The notes beneath the pieces were generated by a model that saw only the letters and a list, made by a program, of their open reading frames with translations, ran no database searches and was not told where the DNA came from. Shown piece by piece: positions 1-6,717 of a stretch of DNA of 64,000 bases. A program made the position numbers and the translations under genes. Origin of the DNA: a virus. Each line of letters opens with the position of its first letter. Position 1 is the stretch's first letter. Where the stretch lies: the IMG/VR virus record IMGVR_UViG_3300018080_000149, positions 1 through 64,000 of that record; one strand, 5' to 3'.

Positions 1-60
1 CGGGAATCGAACCCGACTGACCATCTGATTTACATCAGATCAGGGTTGTGCTTAGCTCGG
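1..60 (-). ncRNA. tRNA-like element E1 (3' end cut off by window edge)
   Basis: Minus strand CCGAGCT...ATCTGAT-GTAA-ATCAGAT...TCGGG-TTCGATT-CCCG. Starts immediately after the stop of 61..549. T-arm is clear; acceptor 3' strand lies outside the window. Confidence 0.6.
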
Positions 61-549
61 TCAGGTGTGGGACTTCATGTATTCCTGGTGATCCCGCCAC
101 TCCTGAGCCATCGTGACACAGTGGTCATGTGCCTTGGAGTAGTTGTCGAAGTCCTGAGTATACAGCCCCATCGACGCCAGCTTATCCATGATGAGATAGA
201 TAGCCGGGTGATGCTCGCACTGAATACCCTCGAACCGAAGGGACCGGAGACCCGTGAACAACGTCCGAGAGACAGCGCGCTCGTTACAGGCGTCCTGTAT
301 GCTCAGAGCGATATGGGCCAACCGGCTCTCCGTGACAATGTCACACCGGGAACGAAGGTCCATTGCGACGGGGCGAGCGTCGTCACCCTTCTCGTCGAAA
401 CGCTTGACGGCGTCGAGGATGAGGTGCTCGAAACACGAGCCGTCGTTATTCCGACACTCTCGAACCATCTTGACGATGGTTATGTCAGCGTCTTCGTCGT
501 CGATGTGTTGCTCACAGATATCCACCAGAACGCTCCCTACGTACTTCAT
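61..549 (-). CDS. hypothetical protein (small-gene array)
   Basis: 162-aa ORF; its ATG overlaps the stop of the upstream peptide (TAATG). Confidence 0.75.
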   Translation of the reverse strand: MKYVGSVLVDICEQHIDDEDADITIVKMVRECRNNDGSCFEHLILDAVKRFDEKGDDARPVAMDLRSRCDIVTESRLAHIALSIQDACNERAVSRTLFTGLRSLRFEGIQCEHHPAIYLIMDKLASMGLYTQDFDNYSKAHDHCVTMAQEWRDHQEYMKSHT

Positions 550-626
550 TAGAAAGCACCTTCATTGTGAGCATTACGACGAGCCGCGATCCTAGCCTTC
601 TTCTGATCCTTTTTCGTGCTGGACAT
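549..626 (-). CDS. 25-aa basic peptide MSSTKKDQKKARIAARRNAHNEGAF
   Basis: Strong SD (GAAAGGAGG) before ATG at 626; TAATG coupling to 61..549; below the ORF-track cutoff, translated by hand. Confidence 0.6.
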   Translation of the reverse strand: MSSTKKDQKKARIAARRNAHNEGAF

Positions 627-645
627 TTTCTGTCCTCCTTTCACC

Positions 646-700
646 TGGCTCCCGGAGGAGGGATCGAACCTCCTAAATGCCTGACCCTTTTGGTCCGGGA
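646..700 (-). ncRNA. tRNA-like element E2 (55 nt)
   Basis: TCCCGGA/TCCGGGA perfect 7-bp acceptor stem, 20-nt linker, GGAGG-TTCGATC-CCTCC T-arm, G-CCA end, then GGTGAAAGGAGG. Confidence 0.8.
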
Positions 701-708
701 ACTTACAC

Positions 709-978
709 CTATGCGCGGAACTCTACGATATCCCGCTCGTCCTTCTGATAACTGCTGTCGCGGTAGATCCGCCGCGACATAATTGCGCGGTGGACGACCT
801 TCTCTACGTACCTGGATACGTCCTTCGCCATCTCTTCTGCCACCTCGTCGGAGATGTAAACCTCGGAGGAGTGTGGAAATAGCGCGTGCTTGAGCCATGA
901 CGCGAATGAGGCAGCGCCCGATCCGGGGCGCTCCATCGCGTCAAGGTCCAGGACTACTAGGTGTCGCGAATGTGCCAT
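709..978 (-). CDS. hypothetical protein
   Basis: 89-aa ORF with GAAAGGAGAG SD, between E3 and E2. Confidence 0.75.
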   Translation of the reverse strand: MAHSRHLVVLDLDAMERPGSGAASFASWLKHALFPHSSEVYISDEVAEEMAKDVSRYVEKVVHRAIMSRRIYRDSSYQKDERDIVEFRA

Positions 979-994
979 TTATCTCTCCTTTCAC

Positions 995-1051
995 TAGAGC
1001 CCTGGGCGGGAATCGAACCCGCCTAAACCGCCCGTTTGACCGGGCCAGGGC
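995..1051 (-). ncRNA. tRNA-like element E3 (57 nt)
   Basis: GCCCTGG/CCAGGGC acceptor, CCCG-GTCAAA-CGGG mini hairpin, GCGGG-TTCGATT-CCCGC T-arm, T-CTA end, then GTGAAAGGAGAG. Confidence 0.8.
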
Positions 1052-1073
1052 TGCCGTCGTGATCTGACTCAGA

Positions 1074-1568
1074 TCACTTGAGAGCGAGCGTCCAAGCCGA
1101 CGCGCGAACCTCGAAAAGGGTGCTCGCGTCCTCCCACTCGATCTCCTCACCGTCCGCCTGAAGGACGACACCATCCTGAATCAGGAGTGCCACCTTGTAC
1201 GGCTCCAGAGCGGCTTCGAGGTCATCGGGGTCGACGTCGTCACCGAGCTGCTCGGTGACGTAGGCCGCCGGGTCCGTGGTGTGGACCATGCTGGACTCTT
1301 CGTCGTCGCCCTCATAGAAGACGAGCGCGATGATCGAGGACTCCTGCTCCTCTTCTTCGACCTCTTCTTCGACCTCTTCTTCGACCTCTTCCTCCTCCTC
1401 GATCTCCTCGATCTCCTCGGGCTCCAGCTGCTTCGCCTTCGCCTTGGCCTTCTGGTTCTTCTTTTGGGCCTTCTGGTTCTGAGCCTTGGCCTTCGCCTTG
1501 CCCTTCCCCTTCGGAGCGTTCTTGGAGTTGTTGGTCTTGGAGTTGTTGGTCTTCTTTCCCTTTGCCAT
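1074..1568 (-). CDS. hypothetical protein with Lys-rich N-terminus and poly-Glu tract
   Basis: 164 aa, GGAGG SD; MAKGKK...KAKAKAK followed by EEIEEIEEEEEVEEEV. Confidence 0.8.
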   Translation of the reverse strand: MAKGKKTNNSKTNNSKNAPKGKGKAKAKAQNQKAQKKNQKAKAKAKQLEPEEIEEIEEEEEVEEEVEEEVEEEEQESSIIALVFYEGDDEESSMVHTTDPAAYVTEQLGDDVDPDDLEAALEPYKVALLIQDGVVLQADGEEIEWEDASTLFEVRASAWTLALK

Positions 1569-1611
1569 GCTCTCCTCCTATGGAGATAGTATCCGCCCAC
1601 CACGGGCGGCC

Positions 1612-1663
1612 CGGACCTCGTACCTGGAATCGAACCAGGTGAATTGCTGACCATAGCCGAGGT
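1612..1663 (-). ncRNA. tRNA-like element E4 (52 nt)
   Basis: ACCTCG/CGAGGT stem, GCT-ATGGTC-AGC mini D-arm with GG, CCTGG-TTCGATT-CCAGG T-arm, CCG end, then a GC-rich hairpin. Confidence 0.75.
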
Positions 1664-1669
1664 TTGTTT

Positions 1670-1930
1670 CTACGTGTGAACTGACCACTCCCCGTTGCAA
1701 TAGTGGAGTAGCCCGTTCATAAAGAACGACCCATCTGATCTCGTCCACAGGACACTGAAACCCCACTGCGAGAAGTCATAACCTAGTGAAACGGTCAGGT
1801 TCTCGCCGTAGTGGTGAAGGTACGACAGTGCCCCCTCCAACGCTTCGAGTAGTACGTCGCCGCCAGTAGCGGCTTCGATAGCCTTCAACGTAGTGTGGAA
1901 GTGCTCCACATTGTCAATCTTGAGAGTCAT
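1670..1930 (-). CDS. small conserved protein, DUF4120-like
   Basis: Start reassigned to ATG 1930 (GAAAGGAGAG SD); YDFSQWGF...MNGLLHY...WSVHT C-terminus recalls the DUF4120 family. Confidence 0.6.
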   Translation of the reverse strand: MTLKIDNVEHFHTTLKAIEAATGGDVLLEALEGALSYLHHYGENLTVSLGYDFSQWGFSVLWTRSDGSFFMNGLLHYCNGEWSVHT

Positions 1931-1945
1931 TAGCTCTCCTTTCAC

Positions 1946-2015
1946 TGGAGCCCCTACCAGGAGTCGAACCTGGCTAGACTTGCGTCTATGTGATCTCCAT
2001 TCGATCACTAGAGGC
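1946..2015 (-). ncRNA. tRNA-like element E5 (70 nt cloverleaf, GNRA tetraloop instead of anticodon loop)
   Basis: GCCTCTA/TAGGGGC acceptor; GTGATC-GAATGGA-GATCAC D-like arm; TAGAC-GCAA-GTCTA; CCAGG-TTCGACT-CCTGG; T-CCA; then GTGAAAGGAGAG. Confidence 0.85.
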
Positions 2016-2022
2016 TAGTTCG

Positions 2023-2529
2023 TCACACTTTGATCTTGAGTTTCATGCCTTTCTTCGCGGGCTTGGTGGCCTTCCTGCCCTTCTTGGCGGGCTTCTTCTT
2101 GGTGGCCTTCTTCGCCAGAGCCTTCTGTGCCTTGACCTCGTCCTCGATGATCTGAACGAAGGCTCGTCCGTACTCATCCATTTGCCTATTGATAGCGCTA
2201 CACTCCTCGACTGAGTCTCTGACCCAGTCCATACCCTTTGGCGAGTCTTTCAATTTCTTCCTGGTAAGCTCCCAGTAGTATGAGCCATCATCCCGAGACG
2301 CCATTTCGCGGAGTGTCTTGCCGTCCTCGGCGGTCCAAGTCTGGACCTCTCGACCGACGTCAAGAATCAGATCTTGTATTGACGACAACTTCTCGACAAC
2401 CAAGCTAGCACGAGGGGCCAGCGGTCCCGTAGCGGTGCCCACAACACGATTGCGTTTCTTGGGAGCCGCCTCCGGCTCGGCCTGCTTGGCCTTCGCCTTC
2501 TTGCCGCCTTTGTTGACCTTGAGCTTCAT
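2023..2529 (-). CDS. Lys-rich, histone-H1-like-tailed protein
   Basis: 168 aa; KKATKKKPAKKGRKATKPAKK tail; GGAGG SD. Confidence 0.8.
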   Translation of the reverse strand: MKLKVNKGGKKAKAKQAEPEAAPKKRNRVVGTATGPLAPRASLVVEKLSSIQDLILDVGREVQTWTAEDGKTLREMASRDDGSYYWELTRKKLKDSPKGMDWVRDSVEECSAINRQMDEYGRAFVQIIEDEVKAQKALAKKATKKKPAKKGRKATKPAKKGMKLKIKV

Positions 2530-2570
2530 AGTATTTCTCCTCCCTTCAAAAGTGCCCTTTCGGGCGGGGT

Positions 2571-2622
2571 TGGTCCCTGTACCTGGAGTCGAACCAGGAT
2601 GATTTGCTGACCGTAGCCAGGG
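2571..2622 (-). ncRNA. tRNA-like element E6 (52 nt, same subtype as E4)
   Basis: CCCTG/CAGGG stem, GCT-ACGGTC-AGC, CCTGG-TTCGACT-CCAGG, A-CCA, then GCCC-GAAA-GGGC hairpin. Confidence 0.8.
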
Positions 2623-2635
2623 GGTTGATTTAGGT

Positions 2636-2703
2636 GGGGAGCCTTCCCGTCTGTCAGTGAAAGGAGGAGAGCGAAATGCCCGTCCACAGACGGGCGGCTC
2701 CCC
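2636..2703. promoter_or_regulatory. stem-loop whose loop is antisense to the shared RBS leader
   Basis: GGGGAGCC-TT-CCCGTCTGT / ACAGACGGG-C-GGCTCCCC arms enclose CAGTGAAAGGAGGAGAGCGAAATG in inverted orientation. Confidence 0.6.
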
Positions 2704-2742
2704 TCAGAGCGCTCCCTTGCCATCTTCTCTCTCTCCTTTCAC

Positions 2743-2788
2743 TGGTCCGTGGGGCGGGAATCGAACCCGCCTACAACCATTCCACAGA
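2743..2788 (-). ncRNA. tRNA-like element E7 (46 nt minihelix)
   Basis: TCTGTGG/CCACGGA stem, short TGG-containing linker, GCGGG-TTCGATT-CCCGC, CCA, then GTGAAAGGAGAG. Confidence 0.7.
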
Positions 2789-2835
2789 TTGCCGCTCCAA
2801 ACGGCCGTCTGAGTAACGAACGTGTGTCCCTGTCG

Positions 2836-3222
2836 TTAGGCTGCGTCTCGCGCGGCCATCTCGGCGTCGATCCGCCGGATCTCGCGAATCCCCGCGTCGC
2901 CCGGACAGGCGAAACAGAGTGCGTCTTCCCACGACTCCAAGTCATCGGGGAACGTGAAACAACAGGAATCGAACGCCCCCCACCGTCTCCAAACGGTGAG
3001 AACGCCATCGTTCGTCGCCTCGTTCACAGAGGCGACGAACATGTCGCCGAGGTAGATGCGAGCGAATCCGCGGGCGATGACGACCGCGCGGAGCGTGCTC
3101 CCCATCAGGGAAGACGTGAACGAGTCACCGATACCGTGAACGGTACCGAGGACCGAACCGCCCTCACGGGCGGTGCCAAGGATTTCGTTACAGGGGCTAG
3201 TCTTCGTCGTCTTCTTACCCAT
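2836..3222 (-). CDS. hypothetical protein
   Basis: 128-aa ORF with AAGGAG SD, between E8 and E7. Confidence 0.75.
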   Translation of the reverse strand: MGKKTTKTSPCNEILGTAREGGSVLGTVHGIGDSFTSSLMGSTLRAVVIARGFARIYLGDMFVASVNEATNDGVLTVWRRWGAFDSCCFTFPDDLESWEDALCFACPGDAGIREIRRIDAEMAARDAA

Positions 3223-3268
3223 GTCAATCTCCTTGCCTAACCCGTTCTAGTGGGCCAGGTCTTTGTTT

Positions 3269-3332
3269 TGGTGGAATCACTGGGAATTGAACCCAATTTG
3301 ATCGGACTCCGATCAACCTACCAAGGAATTCC
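3269..3332 (-). ncRNA. tRNA-like element E8 (64 nt)
   Basis: GGAATT/GATTCC acceptor, CCT-TGGT-AGG mini D-arm, TTGATCGG-AGT-CCGATCAA hairpin, TTGGG-TTCAATT-CCCAG T-arm, A-CCA. Confidence 0.75.
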
Positions 3333-3528
3333 AGGGGCCAGGGCCAGGGCCAGGGCCAGGGGCCAGGGGCCAGGGGCCAGGGGCCAGGGGCCAGGGGCCA
3401 GGGCCAGGGGCCAGGGGCCAGGGGCCAGGGCCAGGGGCCAGGGGCCAGGGGCCAGGGGCCAGGGGCCAGGGGCCAGGGGCCAGGGCCAGGGGCCAGGGGC
3501 CAGGGCCAGGGGCCAGGGCCAGGGGCCA
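3331..3528. repeat. tandem repeat of CCAGGGG/CCAGGG units (29 units)
   Basis: Read directly: 21 heptamers and 8 hexamers; G3-G4 runs separated by CCA. Confidence 0.98.
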
Positions 3529-3740
3529 TAACCCATTGAAAACGAAAGGTGAATTCCCTCCGTCTAATGAAGTACCTATCCCGCGACAGGCCCTACACGA
3601 GAATCTTTCACTGTAGTATAAACACTTACATGTCTCTAAGTACCTGGAATCATTCAGCTTTTCCTGGGGGCTGTAGACCCCAGGAAAAAAGTGATAGAAT
3701 CGTCTAAACCCTTGAAATCATTGGGCTTTTCAGGAATAGC

Positions 3741-3882
3741 TGATCTGATCAGATCAAAACTGGACGAGATCAGGACAAAAAAGTGAAAAAGATCAGGTTT
3801 TCTGGTCAAATTGGTACGGATCTTGATACGCGTGTGAGTGATCTGATCAGATCAAACCTGGACTGAGTCTAGACAAAAAAAG
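3741..3882. repeat. imperfect ~43-bp direct repeat starting with palindrome TGATCTGATCAGATCA
   Basis: Copies at 3741-3783 and 3839-3882 in the non-coding region. Confidence 0.8.
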
Positions 3883-3912
3883 GGTGGCCCCGTGGCCAAA
3901 GCCACGGGGCCA
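3875..3912 (-). terminator. Rho-independent terminator ending the structural operon
   Basis: 12-bp stem TGGCCCCGTGGC/GCCACGGGGCCA, 4-nt loop, followed by T7 on the minus strand. Confidence 0.85.
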
Positions 3913-3923
3913 AGAGCAGGGAA

Positions 3924-4610
3924 TCACGGGTCCACGGATGACTCACCCTCCAGTGGAACGCGTATTCCCCTGCGGATCAAGAGACGCTTTTCTGACTCGT
4001 CCAGGGTTCGCCACCAGACGTCAACAGGAACCTGTTTTGAGTGCCCGTTTGACACCTTTTCAGCGGCGTTCTTCACAACCCTTGTGGTCTGTTTGATTTC
4101 GGTTGTCTGGGATCTCTGAGCACTAAGTATCGAGTCCAGACGTTTAGAGACCTTAGCCTGTTCGACTGTAAGGTGAGCCACATTGGCTTCCATTGTTGCC
4201 TTGGAAGAGAACCACCCGAAGGCGGAACCAATCACGACAACAGCGACACCTAGTACCCAGAAGATGCGTTTCGAGGCCGCGGTTTTGATCTCGTTCAGAT
4301 CAGTCCCATGTCCAGCTATCTCGCTCTCTGCGGTATTTACCTTGAGAGAAAGCATACCTTGGCCGTCACGTAACTCAGTTACCGCCTCGGTATTTGGGCA
4401 ATCTTTCACGGAATGTGGTGTAAGATTTCTGGTATGTTCTTCGAGTTTTTTGACGCGCCCCTTGGTGCCACGAAGATCTGTCTTTAGAGATATAACGTCG
4501 TCCCTTGTGTGTCGGGTGTCGTCTTTTATCGCACGAAGATCATCCTTGACCTCACCGAGAAACGCTCGTATATTAGCGGCAGTTGGTGGCGGTGTCGGTC
4601 TATCAGTCAT
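3924..4610 (-). CDS. coiled-coil protein with one transmembrane helix
   Basis: IFWVLGVAVVVIGSAFGWF hydrophobic segment; heptad-rich flanks. Confidence 0.65.
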   Translation of the reverse strand: MTDRPTPPPTAANIRAFLGEVKDDLRAIKDDTRHTRDDVISLKTDLRGTKGRVKKLEEHTRNLTPHSVKDCPNTEAVTELRDGQGMLSLKVNTAESEIAGHGTDLNEIKTAASKRIFWVLGVAVVVIGSAFGWFSSKATMEANVAHLTVEQAKVSKRLDSILSAQRSQTTEIKQTTRVVKNAAEKVSNGHSKQVPVDVWWRTLDESEKRLLIRRGIRVPLEGESSVDP

Positions 4611-4618
4611 AATGCCCC

Positions 4619-5077
4619 CTAGACCCACGTCCTGAAAACGAGATAAACGTAGGGTTTATCACCAGAGGTTTTCACGCAGTCATAAGAACACTTTATCCTG
4701 GTGTAGTCTGGCGGGAGAGGGGCGGAACCCTCTGCAATGACGGAAATAGATCCAGAGGGCGGGACTGGACACCCAACCTCGTCAACCAAACCACAGGAAA
4801 GTGCTCTCACTTCGATCCAGTCGTACACCCCAGGAGATACCTCCCACAGAGCTTGAATAGCTATGCGTAGAGAATCGCCGTCCACACCAAAAGTGTAATT
4901 GACAAGCTCGACACTGACACCCTGGATCTGCCTTTCCTCTTGGAATTGTACGTAGTAGTCCGTGACGTCATCTAGTTCGGCCTCGAAATCCACTCCGTAG
5001 ATCTGCAAGTTTTTGTTAGAGTCACCCGTAGGCTCCAAGATAGACGGCTGTACAGTCTGGTTTACCACTGACCTCAT
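4619..5077 (-). CDS. hypothetical (probably virion-associated) protein
   Basis: ATGA-coupled ORF in the structural operon. Confidence 0.6.
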   Translation of the reverse strand: MRSVVNQTVQPSILEPTGDSNKNLQIYGVDFEAELDDVTDYYVQFQEERQIQGVSVELVNYTFGVDGDSLRIAIQALWEVSPGVYDWIEVRALSCGLVDEVGCPVPPSGSISVIAEGSAPLPPDYTRIKCSYDCVKTSGDKPYVYLVFRTWV

Positions 5078-5640
5078 AGCAGCACGACCTCCGCGCGACC
5101 CCTGACAATACACTCGAAACGGTCAAGGTCTGTCAGGTCATCGCTCACAGTAAGCGTCAGAGCGCCGTTAGATCCAGCACTTATTACAATACACTCGGGG
5201 AAGTTGATCTCTATCAGTAGGAGATCCACCCCCGAGTCTACGGCGTCCTTGTCGTACTGTATTTCATCTGCGTACAGATAGAAGTCTGACAGCTTGTAGA
5301 CAGGGTCTAAGAACAGTGGTACGTCCTCTCCATCATGCGTAAACTTGAAAGTAATACCGTTGTCCAGGCCGTCTGAATGGCCCTTCCCAAAGTCTTGACC
5401 TTCCTTGCTCGTGATGTTGAGCTTGTCCCCATGAAGGATCAGGCGAATCCTGTCGATTGACTTGTGAAGAGTTGCGTCAGTTGTGACGGAGAACTCGACA
5501 GGTGTCGAAGACCCGTCAACAGCCATGTCCGAGGAGCCCTGGTTCACCAGTTTCTCCAGCAGATATCTGTGACCGTTGGGGTCCACCCCAGCGTCGAGGT
5601 GAGCTTTCACTGTGTTCGTCACTACAGTATTCAGTGGCAT
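5074..5640 (-). CDS. hypothetical (probably virion-associated) protein
   Basis: 188 aa, beta-rich, contiguous in the operon. Confidence 0.6.
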   Translation of the reverse strand: MPLNTVVTNTVKAHLDAGVDPNGHRYLLEKLVNQGSSDMAVDGSSTPVEFSVTTDATLHKSIDRIRLILHGDKLNITSKEGQDFGKGHSDGLDNGITFKFTHDGEDVPLFLDPVYKLSDFYLYADEIQYDKDAVDSGVDLLLIEINFPECIVISAGSNGALTLTVSDDLTDLDRFECIVRGRAEVVLL

Positions 5641-5641
5641 A

Positions 5642-6139
5642 TCATGTCTCCAAATACCCGCGAGCGACCGCGTCTATCTCCTGGCTGGAGTTAGATATGC
5701 GCTCTCTCTTGATAACAAACCTAGTGTTCGTGCCGTTACCAACCATGGACGTACCATCCCTGGTAATTGACGAATCTGGCAGATTGAAACACAACGTCTG
5801 ACCGACGATGTATATCCTGTCGATCAGATGATCCGTCGCAGGACTACCCTCTCGCCAGTAGAACTCCACCTTGGACCCACGCTCCGACGGATCACCGGCG
5901 GCTCCGGCGCACAGCATTTGAACTTTTAGCGTAACACCGTTAGCGATGATTGACGACAAAGTCTCTTTCGGTGTTGTACTAACTGAGAGTTCAGCCTCGT
6001 CCTGCGCTAGAGCGAACTCTGTCGTACCAGTAGGCGGGACAGGCGGGCTAGGGGACACTTTCAAAGCGTTGTTCGAGTTGACGTCTGCTACGCTTGTACC
6101 ATCCTCGTTTACGATCACTCGTGCTGGTCCATCCATCAC
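5642..6139 (-). CDS. hypothetical (probably virion-associated) protein
   Basis: 165 aa, coupled to neighbours. Confidence 0.6.
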   Translation of the reverse strand: MMDGPARVIVNEDGTSVADVNSNNALKVSPSPPVPPTGTTEFALAQDEAELSVSTTPKETLSSIIANGVTLKVQMLCAGAAGDPSERGSKVEFYWREGSPATDHLIDRIYIVGQTLCFNLPDSSITRDGTSMVGNGTNTRFVIKRERISNSSQEIDAVARGYLET

Positions 6140-6717
6140 GCTATCGTCCTTATCCGACTCGTTTCTTTTGACCCGGAGTAGGTCAGCGAGTCTGTAACAG
6201 TTGCGAGTATAGTCGAACCATCAGTGTCGTACATCTTCCACGTTATCGTAGTAGGAAATGCCCCCGTATACGCCAAAGTCTTCTCTACGATTTTCTTCAG
6301 CTTGGAGACAGACTCCCACCATATGATAGCAGTTGGGAAGACTCCCGAGTGTATGGTTTCGCGGTAGGCCCCACTGGTAAAACCTTCTGCGGGTCCGTTG
6401 TCTATGAAGTGTATTAGTTGGCGAAGTGTTCTGTGAGCGCTCTCTGTGAGACCACCACTACCAGACAGTAGCGCAGTAAGCGTAACTGGTGACGTGTTGT
6501 TCTTATCACGAAACCGCATGTCATCGCCTTCGCGCTCTACATACACCTCCTCGTCTCTGTTTGATGCGTCCTGAAGATAGAGCCCGGCGCTCTCGATGGC
6601 GTCCTCTTGAGGTGATATTGGGAGTGGTTGACGATATTCGCCAATGTCCGTATCATCGCCGCCGAGAGCGCTGGACTCTTGCTTCATCAACTGGACGCGG
6701 TCGTCACCAACCGCCAT
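6136..6717 (-). CDS. hypothetical (probably virion-associated) protein
   Basis: 193 aa, follows the fibre-like gene. Confidence 0.6.
   Translation of the reverse strand: MAVGDDRVQLMKQESSALGGDDTDIGEYRQPLPISPQEDAIESAGLYLQDASNRDEEVYVEREGDDMRFRDKNNTSPVTLTALLSGSGGLTESAHRTLRQLIHFIDNGPAEGFTSGAYRETIHSGVFPTAIIWWESVSKLKKIVEKTLAYTGAFPTTITWKMYDTDGSTILATVTDSLTYSGSKETSRIRTIA

Follow-up and report, generated by a model that had tools for sequence, protein, structure and literature searches.

A conserved stem-loop with an anti-Shine-Dalgarno-like core, and possible regulatory RNA, in a mini-tRNA-punctuated phage operon

An array of small genes punctuated by mini-tRNAs

The phage described here (G000) is IMG/VR record IMGVR_UViG_3300018080_000149, an 87.4-kb sequence from a sediment metagenome, and the window that we analyzed comprises its bases 1-64000. 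The first 3.3 kb of G000 hold minus-strand genes with anticodon-less, tRNA-like minihelices between them. These mini-tRNAs consist of an acceptor stem and a T-arm whose loop is of the GGTTCRANYC type; a CCA is often encoded as well. Folding of one of them, E7, in a 301-nt context predicts the same acceptor stem and T-arm. ARAGORN called no tRNA among the mini-tRNAs of G000, and Rfam returned only sub-threshold matches to their T-arms; the T-arm of E7 alone matches the tmRNA model, and does so only locally. Hairpins also stand 5’ of other mini-tRNAs of the array.

The array extends past the window, with further elements and their Shine-Dalgarno (SD) leaders at approximately 87019, 84963 and 83927, giving at least 11 elements in total. 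Element E1 straddles the point where the two ends of the record meet, with window 1-60 following on 87375-87400. The two ends of the record have a 15-nt overlap, CGGGAATCGAACCCG, in common, indicating that the record is circularly permuted. A helicase gene follows next after the array. On the minus strand at window 3885-3912, a 12-bp GC-rich hairpin followed by a T-run is a strong candidate for an intrinsic terminator that would close the upstream (late) operon; a scan of the sequence between this terminator (3912-3885) and the array found no sigma-70-like promoter. When sequencing runs were searched, the stretch matched only the DNA run of the source sediment and no RNA run.

The gene-less interval between E7 and E6

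Our focus is the interval between two of these elements, both on the minus strand, which is the coding strand here. Mini-tRNA E7 (2743..2788) has a 7-bp acceptor stem, a 6-bp T-arm and an encoded CCA, and forms the 5’ boundary of a cassette with no credible gene. Mini-tRNA E6 (2571..2622) has a 5-bp acceptor stem, the T-arm CCUGG-UUCGACU-CCAGG and an ACCA end, and forms the 3’ boundary. Immediately behind E7 lies an orphan leader with an SD and an AUG (CAGUGAAAGGAGAGAGAGAAGAUG, also read CAGTGAAAGGAGAGAGAGAAGATG; 2721..2744, minus strand), behind which we see no credible gene. The orphan start AUGGCAAGGGAG (2709-2723) resembles the start of the 164-aa lysine-rich gene of the array, AUGGCAAAGGGA (1554-1568), and this likeness may be the remnant of a lost paralogous gene.

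The body of the cassette is a stem-loop at 2636..2703 (minus strand) that ends 13 nt before E6 begins. Its two helices, P1 (2703-2696/2643-2636) and P2 (2694-2686/2654-2646), make up the 17-bp interrupted stem (2703-2686/2654-2636) that an earlier note on this DNA had described, and we find it where that note had placed it. Within it, an inner hairpin pairs GGA.GGGC with GCUC.UCC, and an 11-nt stretch, UCCUUUCACUG (2665-2655, minus strand), is left single-stranded in an internal loop. The stem-loop holds a 17-nt core, CGCUCUCCUCCUUUCAC (2657..2673, minus strand), which is anti-Shine-Dalgarno-like and which we refer to as the anti-leader.

The core is part of a longer antisense copy of the E7 leader (2655..2678, minus strand; CATTTCGCTCTCCTCCTTTCACTG / CAUUUCGCUCUCCUCCUUUCACUG). 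The earlier note had reported such a copy at 2678-2655 on the coding strand, and the inverted repeats that our search recovers bear this out: 2655-2666 and 2733-2744 match at 12/12 positions, with a 10-nt extension at 90%. The complementarity had been taken to cover the leader as a whole; 12 perfect base pairs and five more do form, but they account for 17 of the 24 positions and not for the full 24 nt. The same search recovers the 9/9 repeat 2646-2654/2686-2694, and a 13-nt match (92%) between the anti-leader at 2658-2670 and the SD of the next gene at 2536-2548. A 31-bp invertible segment between 9-bp repeats was also considered, and was dropped as unsupported.

The leader itself is a recurrent component of the array, as had been claimed. 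Across all 87.4 kb of G000, GTGAAAGGAG occurs at five sites on the minus strand (644, 994, 1945, 2742 and 87373), every one of them directly after a mini-tRNA, and at two sites on the plus strand (2657 and 73052). Outside the window, a second UCCUCCUUUCAC lies at G000 73064-73052 on the minus strand, which is the coding strand there also, in an intergenic gap just past a stop codon. Two such 10-mers on that strand of G000 exceed expectation (approximately 0.08), and the RNA around 73064-73052 has no significant predicted structure.

Competing folds of the interval

The energies given here are nearest-neighbor predictions, a model to which ribosomes, proteins and co-transcriptional kinetics are external. 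Within that model the pattern exceeds chance, as both the stem-loop and the interval fold better than their shuffles. The 68-nt stem-loop is predicted at -40.7 kcal/mol, and none of 200-300 shuffles reached that stability (z between -4.7 and -5.5); the 121-nt E7-E6 interval is predicted at -54.8 kcal/mol (z -3.2).

The minimum free energy structure of the interval, which is also the centroid, is a closed form (-54.8 kcal/mol) in which the E7 leader pairs with the anti-leader over 12 + 5 bp, the antisense copy providing the 3’ strand of the helix with 2744-2721. The E7 SD is only 0.08 unpaired in this form and the anti-leader 0.03 unpaired, and in the ensemble the SD is unpaired 8-13% of the time. 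The closed form also contains a local hairpin, GCCCGUC-UGUG-GACGGGC (2678..2695, minus strand), that competes with P2; it is the competing hairpin of the earlier note (there GCCCGTC-CACA-GACGGGC at 2678-2695), and the plus-strand ATG reported along with it is likewise present at 2676-2678. Forcing the 17-bp stem yields an open form at -47.5 kcal/mol, approximately 7 kcal/mol above the closed form, in which the leader is free and UCCUUUCACUG lies in the internal loop.

A third pairing emerges when the E7 leader is removed. The minimum free energy partner of the anti-leader is then UGAAGGGAGGAGA (2536..2548, minus strand), the SD that belongs to the following 168-aa gene (2529-2023). The resulting 13-bp helix, including one G-U pair, encloses E6 and has almost the same energy as the open form. 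Because the closed, open and downstream-SD pairings compete, the E7-E6 region is switch-like on paper, and it has two features of a cis SD-sequestering hairpin: an anti-SD in the same RNA and a dominant predicted fold that hides the SD.

Predicted SD accessibility is lowest for the leaders that precede no credible gene (0.13 for E7 and 0.03 for E0), as compared with 0.20-0.87 unpaired for gene-bearing leaders; the values for E5 and E1 (0.20-0.22) lie near that of E7. The E0 leader, GGUGAAAAGGAGAGAUAG, belongs to a second gene-less cassette at L019:6839-6999 (G000 86998-86838, minus strand). It is predicted to pair with CUAUUUCUUC and with UUCACC 140 nt downstream, around a strong terminator-like GGGGCCGGGCC/GGCCCGGCCCC hairpin. 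This cassette (z -4.4; SD 0.03 unpaired) resembles that of E7 in layout.

What is kept in a related phage

Alignment of terminase homologues led us to G001 (IMGVR_UViG_3300017963_000220), a complete 95.8-kb IMG/VR phage with a terminase 68% identical to that of G000. A terminase homologue closer to G000 (P0003, 83% identical) is encoded on a 52.7-kb contig; two others, P0004 and P0009, are 69% and 51% identical. Our conservation comparison is between two element-bearing genomes, G000 and G001, and is one of DNA sequences. The array of G001 lies on the plus strand at 1-6300 (L025:1-6400) and holds at least nine mini-tRNAs. The two arrays are syntenic from a 234-aa gene to the helicase, an orthologue of which is present in G001; a search by helicase alignment retrieves G001 again. 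Three small genes (168 aa, 164 aa and 86 aa) are orthologous at 34-39% identity, while the other small genes differ and the order has changed. A third phage, G002, with a terminase 49% identical, has neither a mini-tRNA array nor the motif, which marks the array as a lineage-specific invention with rapid turnover of its cassettes.

Other searches returned no further relatives. The 128-aa and 168-aa proteins have none among viral contigs, and neither the helicase among metagenome contigs nor the module patterns among metagenome and viral contigs found any; a search of 5.8 billion proteins with the 128-aa protein returned no homologue except itself. Megablast against GenBank phages returned nothing. 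The pattern of a T-arm plus a leader matched only ordinary tRNAs followed by SDs, and the motif-plus-T-arm pattern matched only chance SD leaders in GTDB genomes. In viral contigs the 16-mer occurred only in G001 and in ten SD leaders on the opposite strand.

On the coding strand of G001, GCGCUCUCCUCCUUUCACC lies within a 194-nt non-coding gap. The 17-nt core CGCUCUCCUCCUUUCAC is identical at 17/17 positions in the two phages (G001 L025:2465-2481), amid sequence that cannot otherwise be aligned. Only two exact matches between the arrays are longer, one in an orthologous gene and one in a T-arm; an exact match of at least 17 nt arose in 1/200 dinucleotide shuffles. The surrounding RNA of G001 folds into a stem-loop as well (L025:2415-2507; -47.5 kcal/mol, z -4.6), and in both phages a mini-tRNA begins 1-13 nt downstream of the stem-loop. 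In G001 this mini-tRNA (L025:2504-2562) has an 8-bp acceptor stem and a D-like arm formed by a TGATC-N7-GATCA palindrome that is also seen in elements of G000; its T-loop is a degenerate UUCGUGA, and it ends in GCC in place of CCA.

The two stem-loops share a layout. A long outer stem encloses the motif, GCUC(U) of the motif pairs with an upstream GGGC, and CUUUCAC is left single-stranded; in both, CUUUCAC is predicted to be 0.96-1.0 unpaired and (UCC)UUUCAC 0.8-1.0. RNAalifold on the two sequences gives 15 consensus pairs, six of which are changed on both sides, four of these six in the outer stem. The outer stem is thus maintained through compensatory changes, with 4-6 double changes. The presence of the same core, the same fold and a compensated stem in both phages indicates that the open-form stem-loop is the conserved object.

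The closed form is not shared. Upstream of its stem-loop G001 has no leader, and a 73-aa gene and a small hairpin stand there instead; the hairpin at 2678-2695 is not kept either. It follows that the closed form is lineage-specific and the switch geometry peculiar to G000, and also that the conserved function cannot be sequestration of the E7 leader itself. Nor is the SD:anti-SD pairing conserved in G001, where pairing with the downstream SD costs 12 kcal/mol. Judging from the two arrays, the closed form arose in G000 because a gene-less module of mini-tRNA and leader lies directly upstream of a pre-existing anti-leader. The cis SD-sequestering switch of the earlier note therefore stands for G000 as a prediction (closed -54.8 vs open -47.5 kcal/mol, with the SD 8% unpaired), but its geometry is absent in G001.

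A possible anti-Shine-Dalgarno regulatory RNA

As judged from the recovery of the core and its fold in a distant relative, the anti-leader is a real, selected element, and probably a translation-control RNA of an uncatalogued kind. The reading that we favor, and hold tentatively, is that of a conserved anti-Shine-Dalgarno regulatory RNA in a mini-tRNA-punctuated early operon, which would act by pairing with an SD leader and is predicted to be locked in cis in this phage.

Under this reading the E7-E6 interval would be a gene-less cassette of the early operon, with the non-coding stem-loop at 2703-2636 as its body. The stem-loop would offer CGCUCUCCUCCUUUCAC, the complement of the GUGAAAGGAG(G) leaders that follow mini-tRNAs, for RNA-RNA pairing with such a leader. 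In G000 a partner would be at hand within the same interval of approximately 120 nt, namely the orphan leader after E7. In the closed state, the predicted ground state, the 17-bp leader:anti-leader helix would hide the SD and block translation into the stem-loop and E6; in the open state, the conserved 17-bp stem would free the leader and display UCCUUUCAC single-stranded. In favor of this reading are the core and fold kept in G001, the single element per array with a tail that is the strongest duplex partner of every leader, the closed form as the predicted minimum, the poor SD accessibility of the two leaders with no credible gene, and the failure of the coding readings. Counting against it are the absence of the closed form from G001, the cost of cis pairing there, the nil net binding of the folded G001 stem-loop, and the partly automatic match of any SD complement to many leaders. 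The sequences, how far they and the fold are conserved, and the relative energies are shown directly; processing of the transcript at the mini-tRNAs, control of translation through the pairing, and the choice of partner in vivo we infer.

It is possible that the element also acts on sibling leaders, either within the uncut precursor or, once excised, in trans. That both phages display the seed in the same way, and that a single copy faces a shared target, favors such action; the cis lock in G000 and the weak binding predicted in G001 count against it.

If pairing with the shared leader is indeed what the element does, these phages would run an operon with tRNA-like cutting signals between its genes and a single master anti-leader RNA embedded in it. 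This would tie tRNA-type RNA processing to translational timing, for which the c4 RNA of phages P1 and P7 has so far been the only, isolated case. The conserved 17-mer and the compensating stems offer a short and directly testable target.

Alternative explanations

The earlier note proposed a diffusible form of the same idea, and we consider it an unlikely alternative. In the version weighed here, processing at the mini-tRNAs would cut free a stable RNA of approximately 70-120 nt, whose CUUUCAC seed would pair with the GUGAAAGGAG leaders of sibling genes and shut off their translation as the RNA accumulates. The motif and the scaffold that displays it are kept, with the seed single-stranded in both phages, and each array has one anti-leader element, complementary to all of the leaders. 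By raw duplex energy the tail of the element is the best partner of every array leader, and genome-wide the top three non-self targets are the E7 leader, the SD of the 164-aa gene and that of the 168-aa gene. In raw terms the complementarity is strongest toward leaders of the array itself. In the other cassettes the 3’ tail does not pair with the 5’ leader, so that the arrangement is not a general design of the array. Once folded, the G000 stem-loop still has a net binding of -8 to -9 kcal/mol with the E7, E2 and E1 leaders, as against 0.0 with 30 non-array gene starts. Just past the motif the two phages differ (UG in G000, C in G001), in each case such that pairing reaches further into the phage’s own type of leader (CAGUGAAAG and GGUGAAAU, respectively), though by 1-2 nt only. 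The c4 RNA provides a precedent.

Part of this complementarity is automatic, since the complement of a strong SD will pair with any strong SD. Moreover, an RNA cut between E7 and E6 would hold both leader and anti-leader, and the predicted 97% pairing of the anti-leader to the leader of its own molecule would leave it unavailable for trans action in this phage. The folded stem-loop of G001 has a net binding of 0.0 for all of its leaders, and an RNA of this kind would be produced 1:1 with its targets from one transcript. The specific proposal of an sRNA from between E7 and E6 that blocks ribosome binding sites in trans is not borne out by these predictions.

We give about the same low chance to the alternative that the stem-loop is a structural or processing element whose anti-SD likeness serves some other partner. 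It might be a hairpin that protects the 3’ end of the upstream transcript once RNase P has cleaved it, or a 5’ leader guiding the cut at the adjacent mini-tRNA. It might also be a site for RNase III, or imitate the 3’ end of 16S rRNA and so bind the 30S subunit or a protein. Its position, in both phages 5’ of a mini-tRNA at a distance of 1-13 nt, is consistent with this, as are the hairpins that precede other mini-tRNAs of the array; in G001 the element follows a gene, and would become the 3’ end of that mRNA after cleavage. The motif and the 3’ end of many bacterial 16S rRNAs have CCUCCUUUC in common. However, a protective or guide hairpin would need no invariant 17-nt block, and other junctions do without one. 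The stem is followed by ACCUAAAUCAACC in G000 and by AGGGGCGG in G001; a scan found no intrinsic terminator at the stem-loop, and the lack of a U-tract after the stem means that it is not one. The element has no known protein partner. Phages do have abundant non-coding RNAs of unknown role near tRNA genes, the Kayvirus lncRNAs among them (PMC9241854).

It is tempting to speculate, at comparably low probability, that the stem-loop is a stable mimic of the ribosomal anti-SD end, released by tRNA-type cuts. Such an RNA could outlive the early mRNAs and act as a timer, silencing the early operon by titration of the GUGAAAGGAG leaders, or it could be a decoy for a factor that recognizes the 16S 3’ end. 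If so, phages would have a new class of riboregulator, one associated with an operon that tRNA-like elements punctuate.

A non-functional relic seems improbable to us. The stem-loop would then be the scar of an inverted duplication or recombination of the mini-tRNA-plus-leader module, left behind on loss of a gene. The inverted copy in G000 does retain the whole layout of a leader, including a correctly spaced ATG, and is closest to the E1 leader; we see no credible gene in the cassette, and turnover of small genes between the two phages is rapid. In G001, however, the core is identical; it lies on the coding strand there too, has the same fold and adjoins a mini-tRNA, whereas the ATG and the flanks are lost. 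Retention of the core and the fold while the ATG and flanks disappear points to selection on the RNA, and argues against a neutral relic.

Two open reading frames raise the question of a small protein, and each has a good SD and an ATG ahead of it. As the earlier note stated, the sole ORF in the E7-E6 interval (ORF65, 65 aa, 2526..2723, minus strand) crosses E6; it opens at the orphan AUG and reads across the stem-loop before it reaches the mini-tRNA. Its codon score is 0.074 per codon, as compared with 0.27 +/- 0.12 for in-frame and -0.24 +/- 0.14 for out-of-frame sequence; this is above 98.7% of out-of-frame chunks, while 95% of in-frame chunks score higher. With a GC3 of 0.56 it falls short of the neighboring genes (0.68-0.82). 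The stop codon of ORF65 overlaps the start of the 168-aa gene (ATGA, window 2526-2529), an overlap that may be due to chance, as E6 is free of stop codons in two of its three frames. On these sequence properties ORF65 is probably not a gene. A 46-aa ORF lies on the plus strand behind the inverted SD and ATG (2676..2816). The plus-strand ORFs score -0.10 and -0.15, like non-coding sequence (-0.15 for the 46-aa ORF), and no promoter-like site was found for the latter. On the opposite strand of G001 the plus-strand ATG is missing, the first start codon comes 16 nt past GGAGG, and the ORF is not kept. Neither ORF65 nor the plus-strand ORF has a Pfam match or a homologue in G001 or G002. We therefore reject the plus-strand antisense peptide gene, the alternative by which the earlier note would have been refuted, for want of a conserved ATG and ORF, a positive codon score or a promoter-like site. 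That either ORF is a real small gene, with ORF65 coupled to the next gene through its ATGA, is the least probable of all the readings, and we regard it as very unlikely.

Comparison with known systems

In Rfam, no family matches near its gathering score in either phage, and the matches seen are to chance hairpins only. Our search of full-text literature turned up no account of a phage mRNA operon punctuated by tRNA-like elements, nor of one that contains an anti-leader RNA. Several known systems nevertheless share parts of what we describe.

The early transcripts of the T4 genes e, soc and I-TevI carry hairpins that sequester the SD. A similar hairpin is present in the type I toxin mRNA aapA1 (PMC6733600). 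In these hairpins an anti-SD of the same RNA, located upstream or downstream, pairs with the SD and a competing fold sets the open or closed state, much as in the closed form described here. They control a real gene, however, and their pairing is conserved, whereas the leader of G000 has no credible gene behind it and G001 keeps the anti-SD stem-loop without the leader.

Small RNAs are also derived from tRNA-type precursors, as exemplified by the 3’ETS-leuZ sponge of E. coli, the tRNA-miRNA TMERs of MHV68 and the stable RNAs of the T4 tRNA cluster. Common to these and to our element is a structured RNA beside tRNAs or tRNA-like folds, whose ends could be set by the processing enzymes. In contrast, the known examples lie beside real tRNAs or in Pol III units and have no anti-SD, while the G000 element is found among anticodon-less minihelices inside an mRNA operon.

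The Kayvirus RNAs lnc001 and lnc002, which have been compared with GOLLD and ROOL, are abundant phage non-coding RNAs encoded beside tRNA genes, and their role is not understood (PMC9241854). All four resemble our element as phage non-coding RNAs of unknown role by tRNA genes. They are, however, much larger, have their own promoters and are unrelated in sequence; the element of G000 and G001 measures 68-93 nt and lies in an mRNA array.

In its way of working, the nearest analogue is an antisense RNA of phages P1 and P7, c4. Encoded in the immI operon, c4 comes from the transcript that also carries its targets; RNase P generates the mature form, which blocks a ribosome binding site further down the operon. 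Our element is likewise phage-encoded, lies on the transcript of its putative targets and is complementary to the ribosome binding site regions of its own operon, any processing of it being putative; its recognition sequence is predicted to be single-stranded on a stable, conserved scaffold, as in an RNA of the c4 type. The two have no sequence or Rfam match. The c4 RNA itself mimics the acceptor end of a tRNA, whereas the G000 element is flanked by separate mini-tRNAs. Moreover, c4 serves two specific sites in a lysogeny-immunity circuit, while the G000 element is the complement of a generic, repeated SD leader in an early operon of lytic type. The element is probably an antisense or anti-Shine-Dalgarno riboregulator that would be linked to tRNA-type processing.
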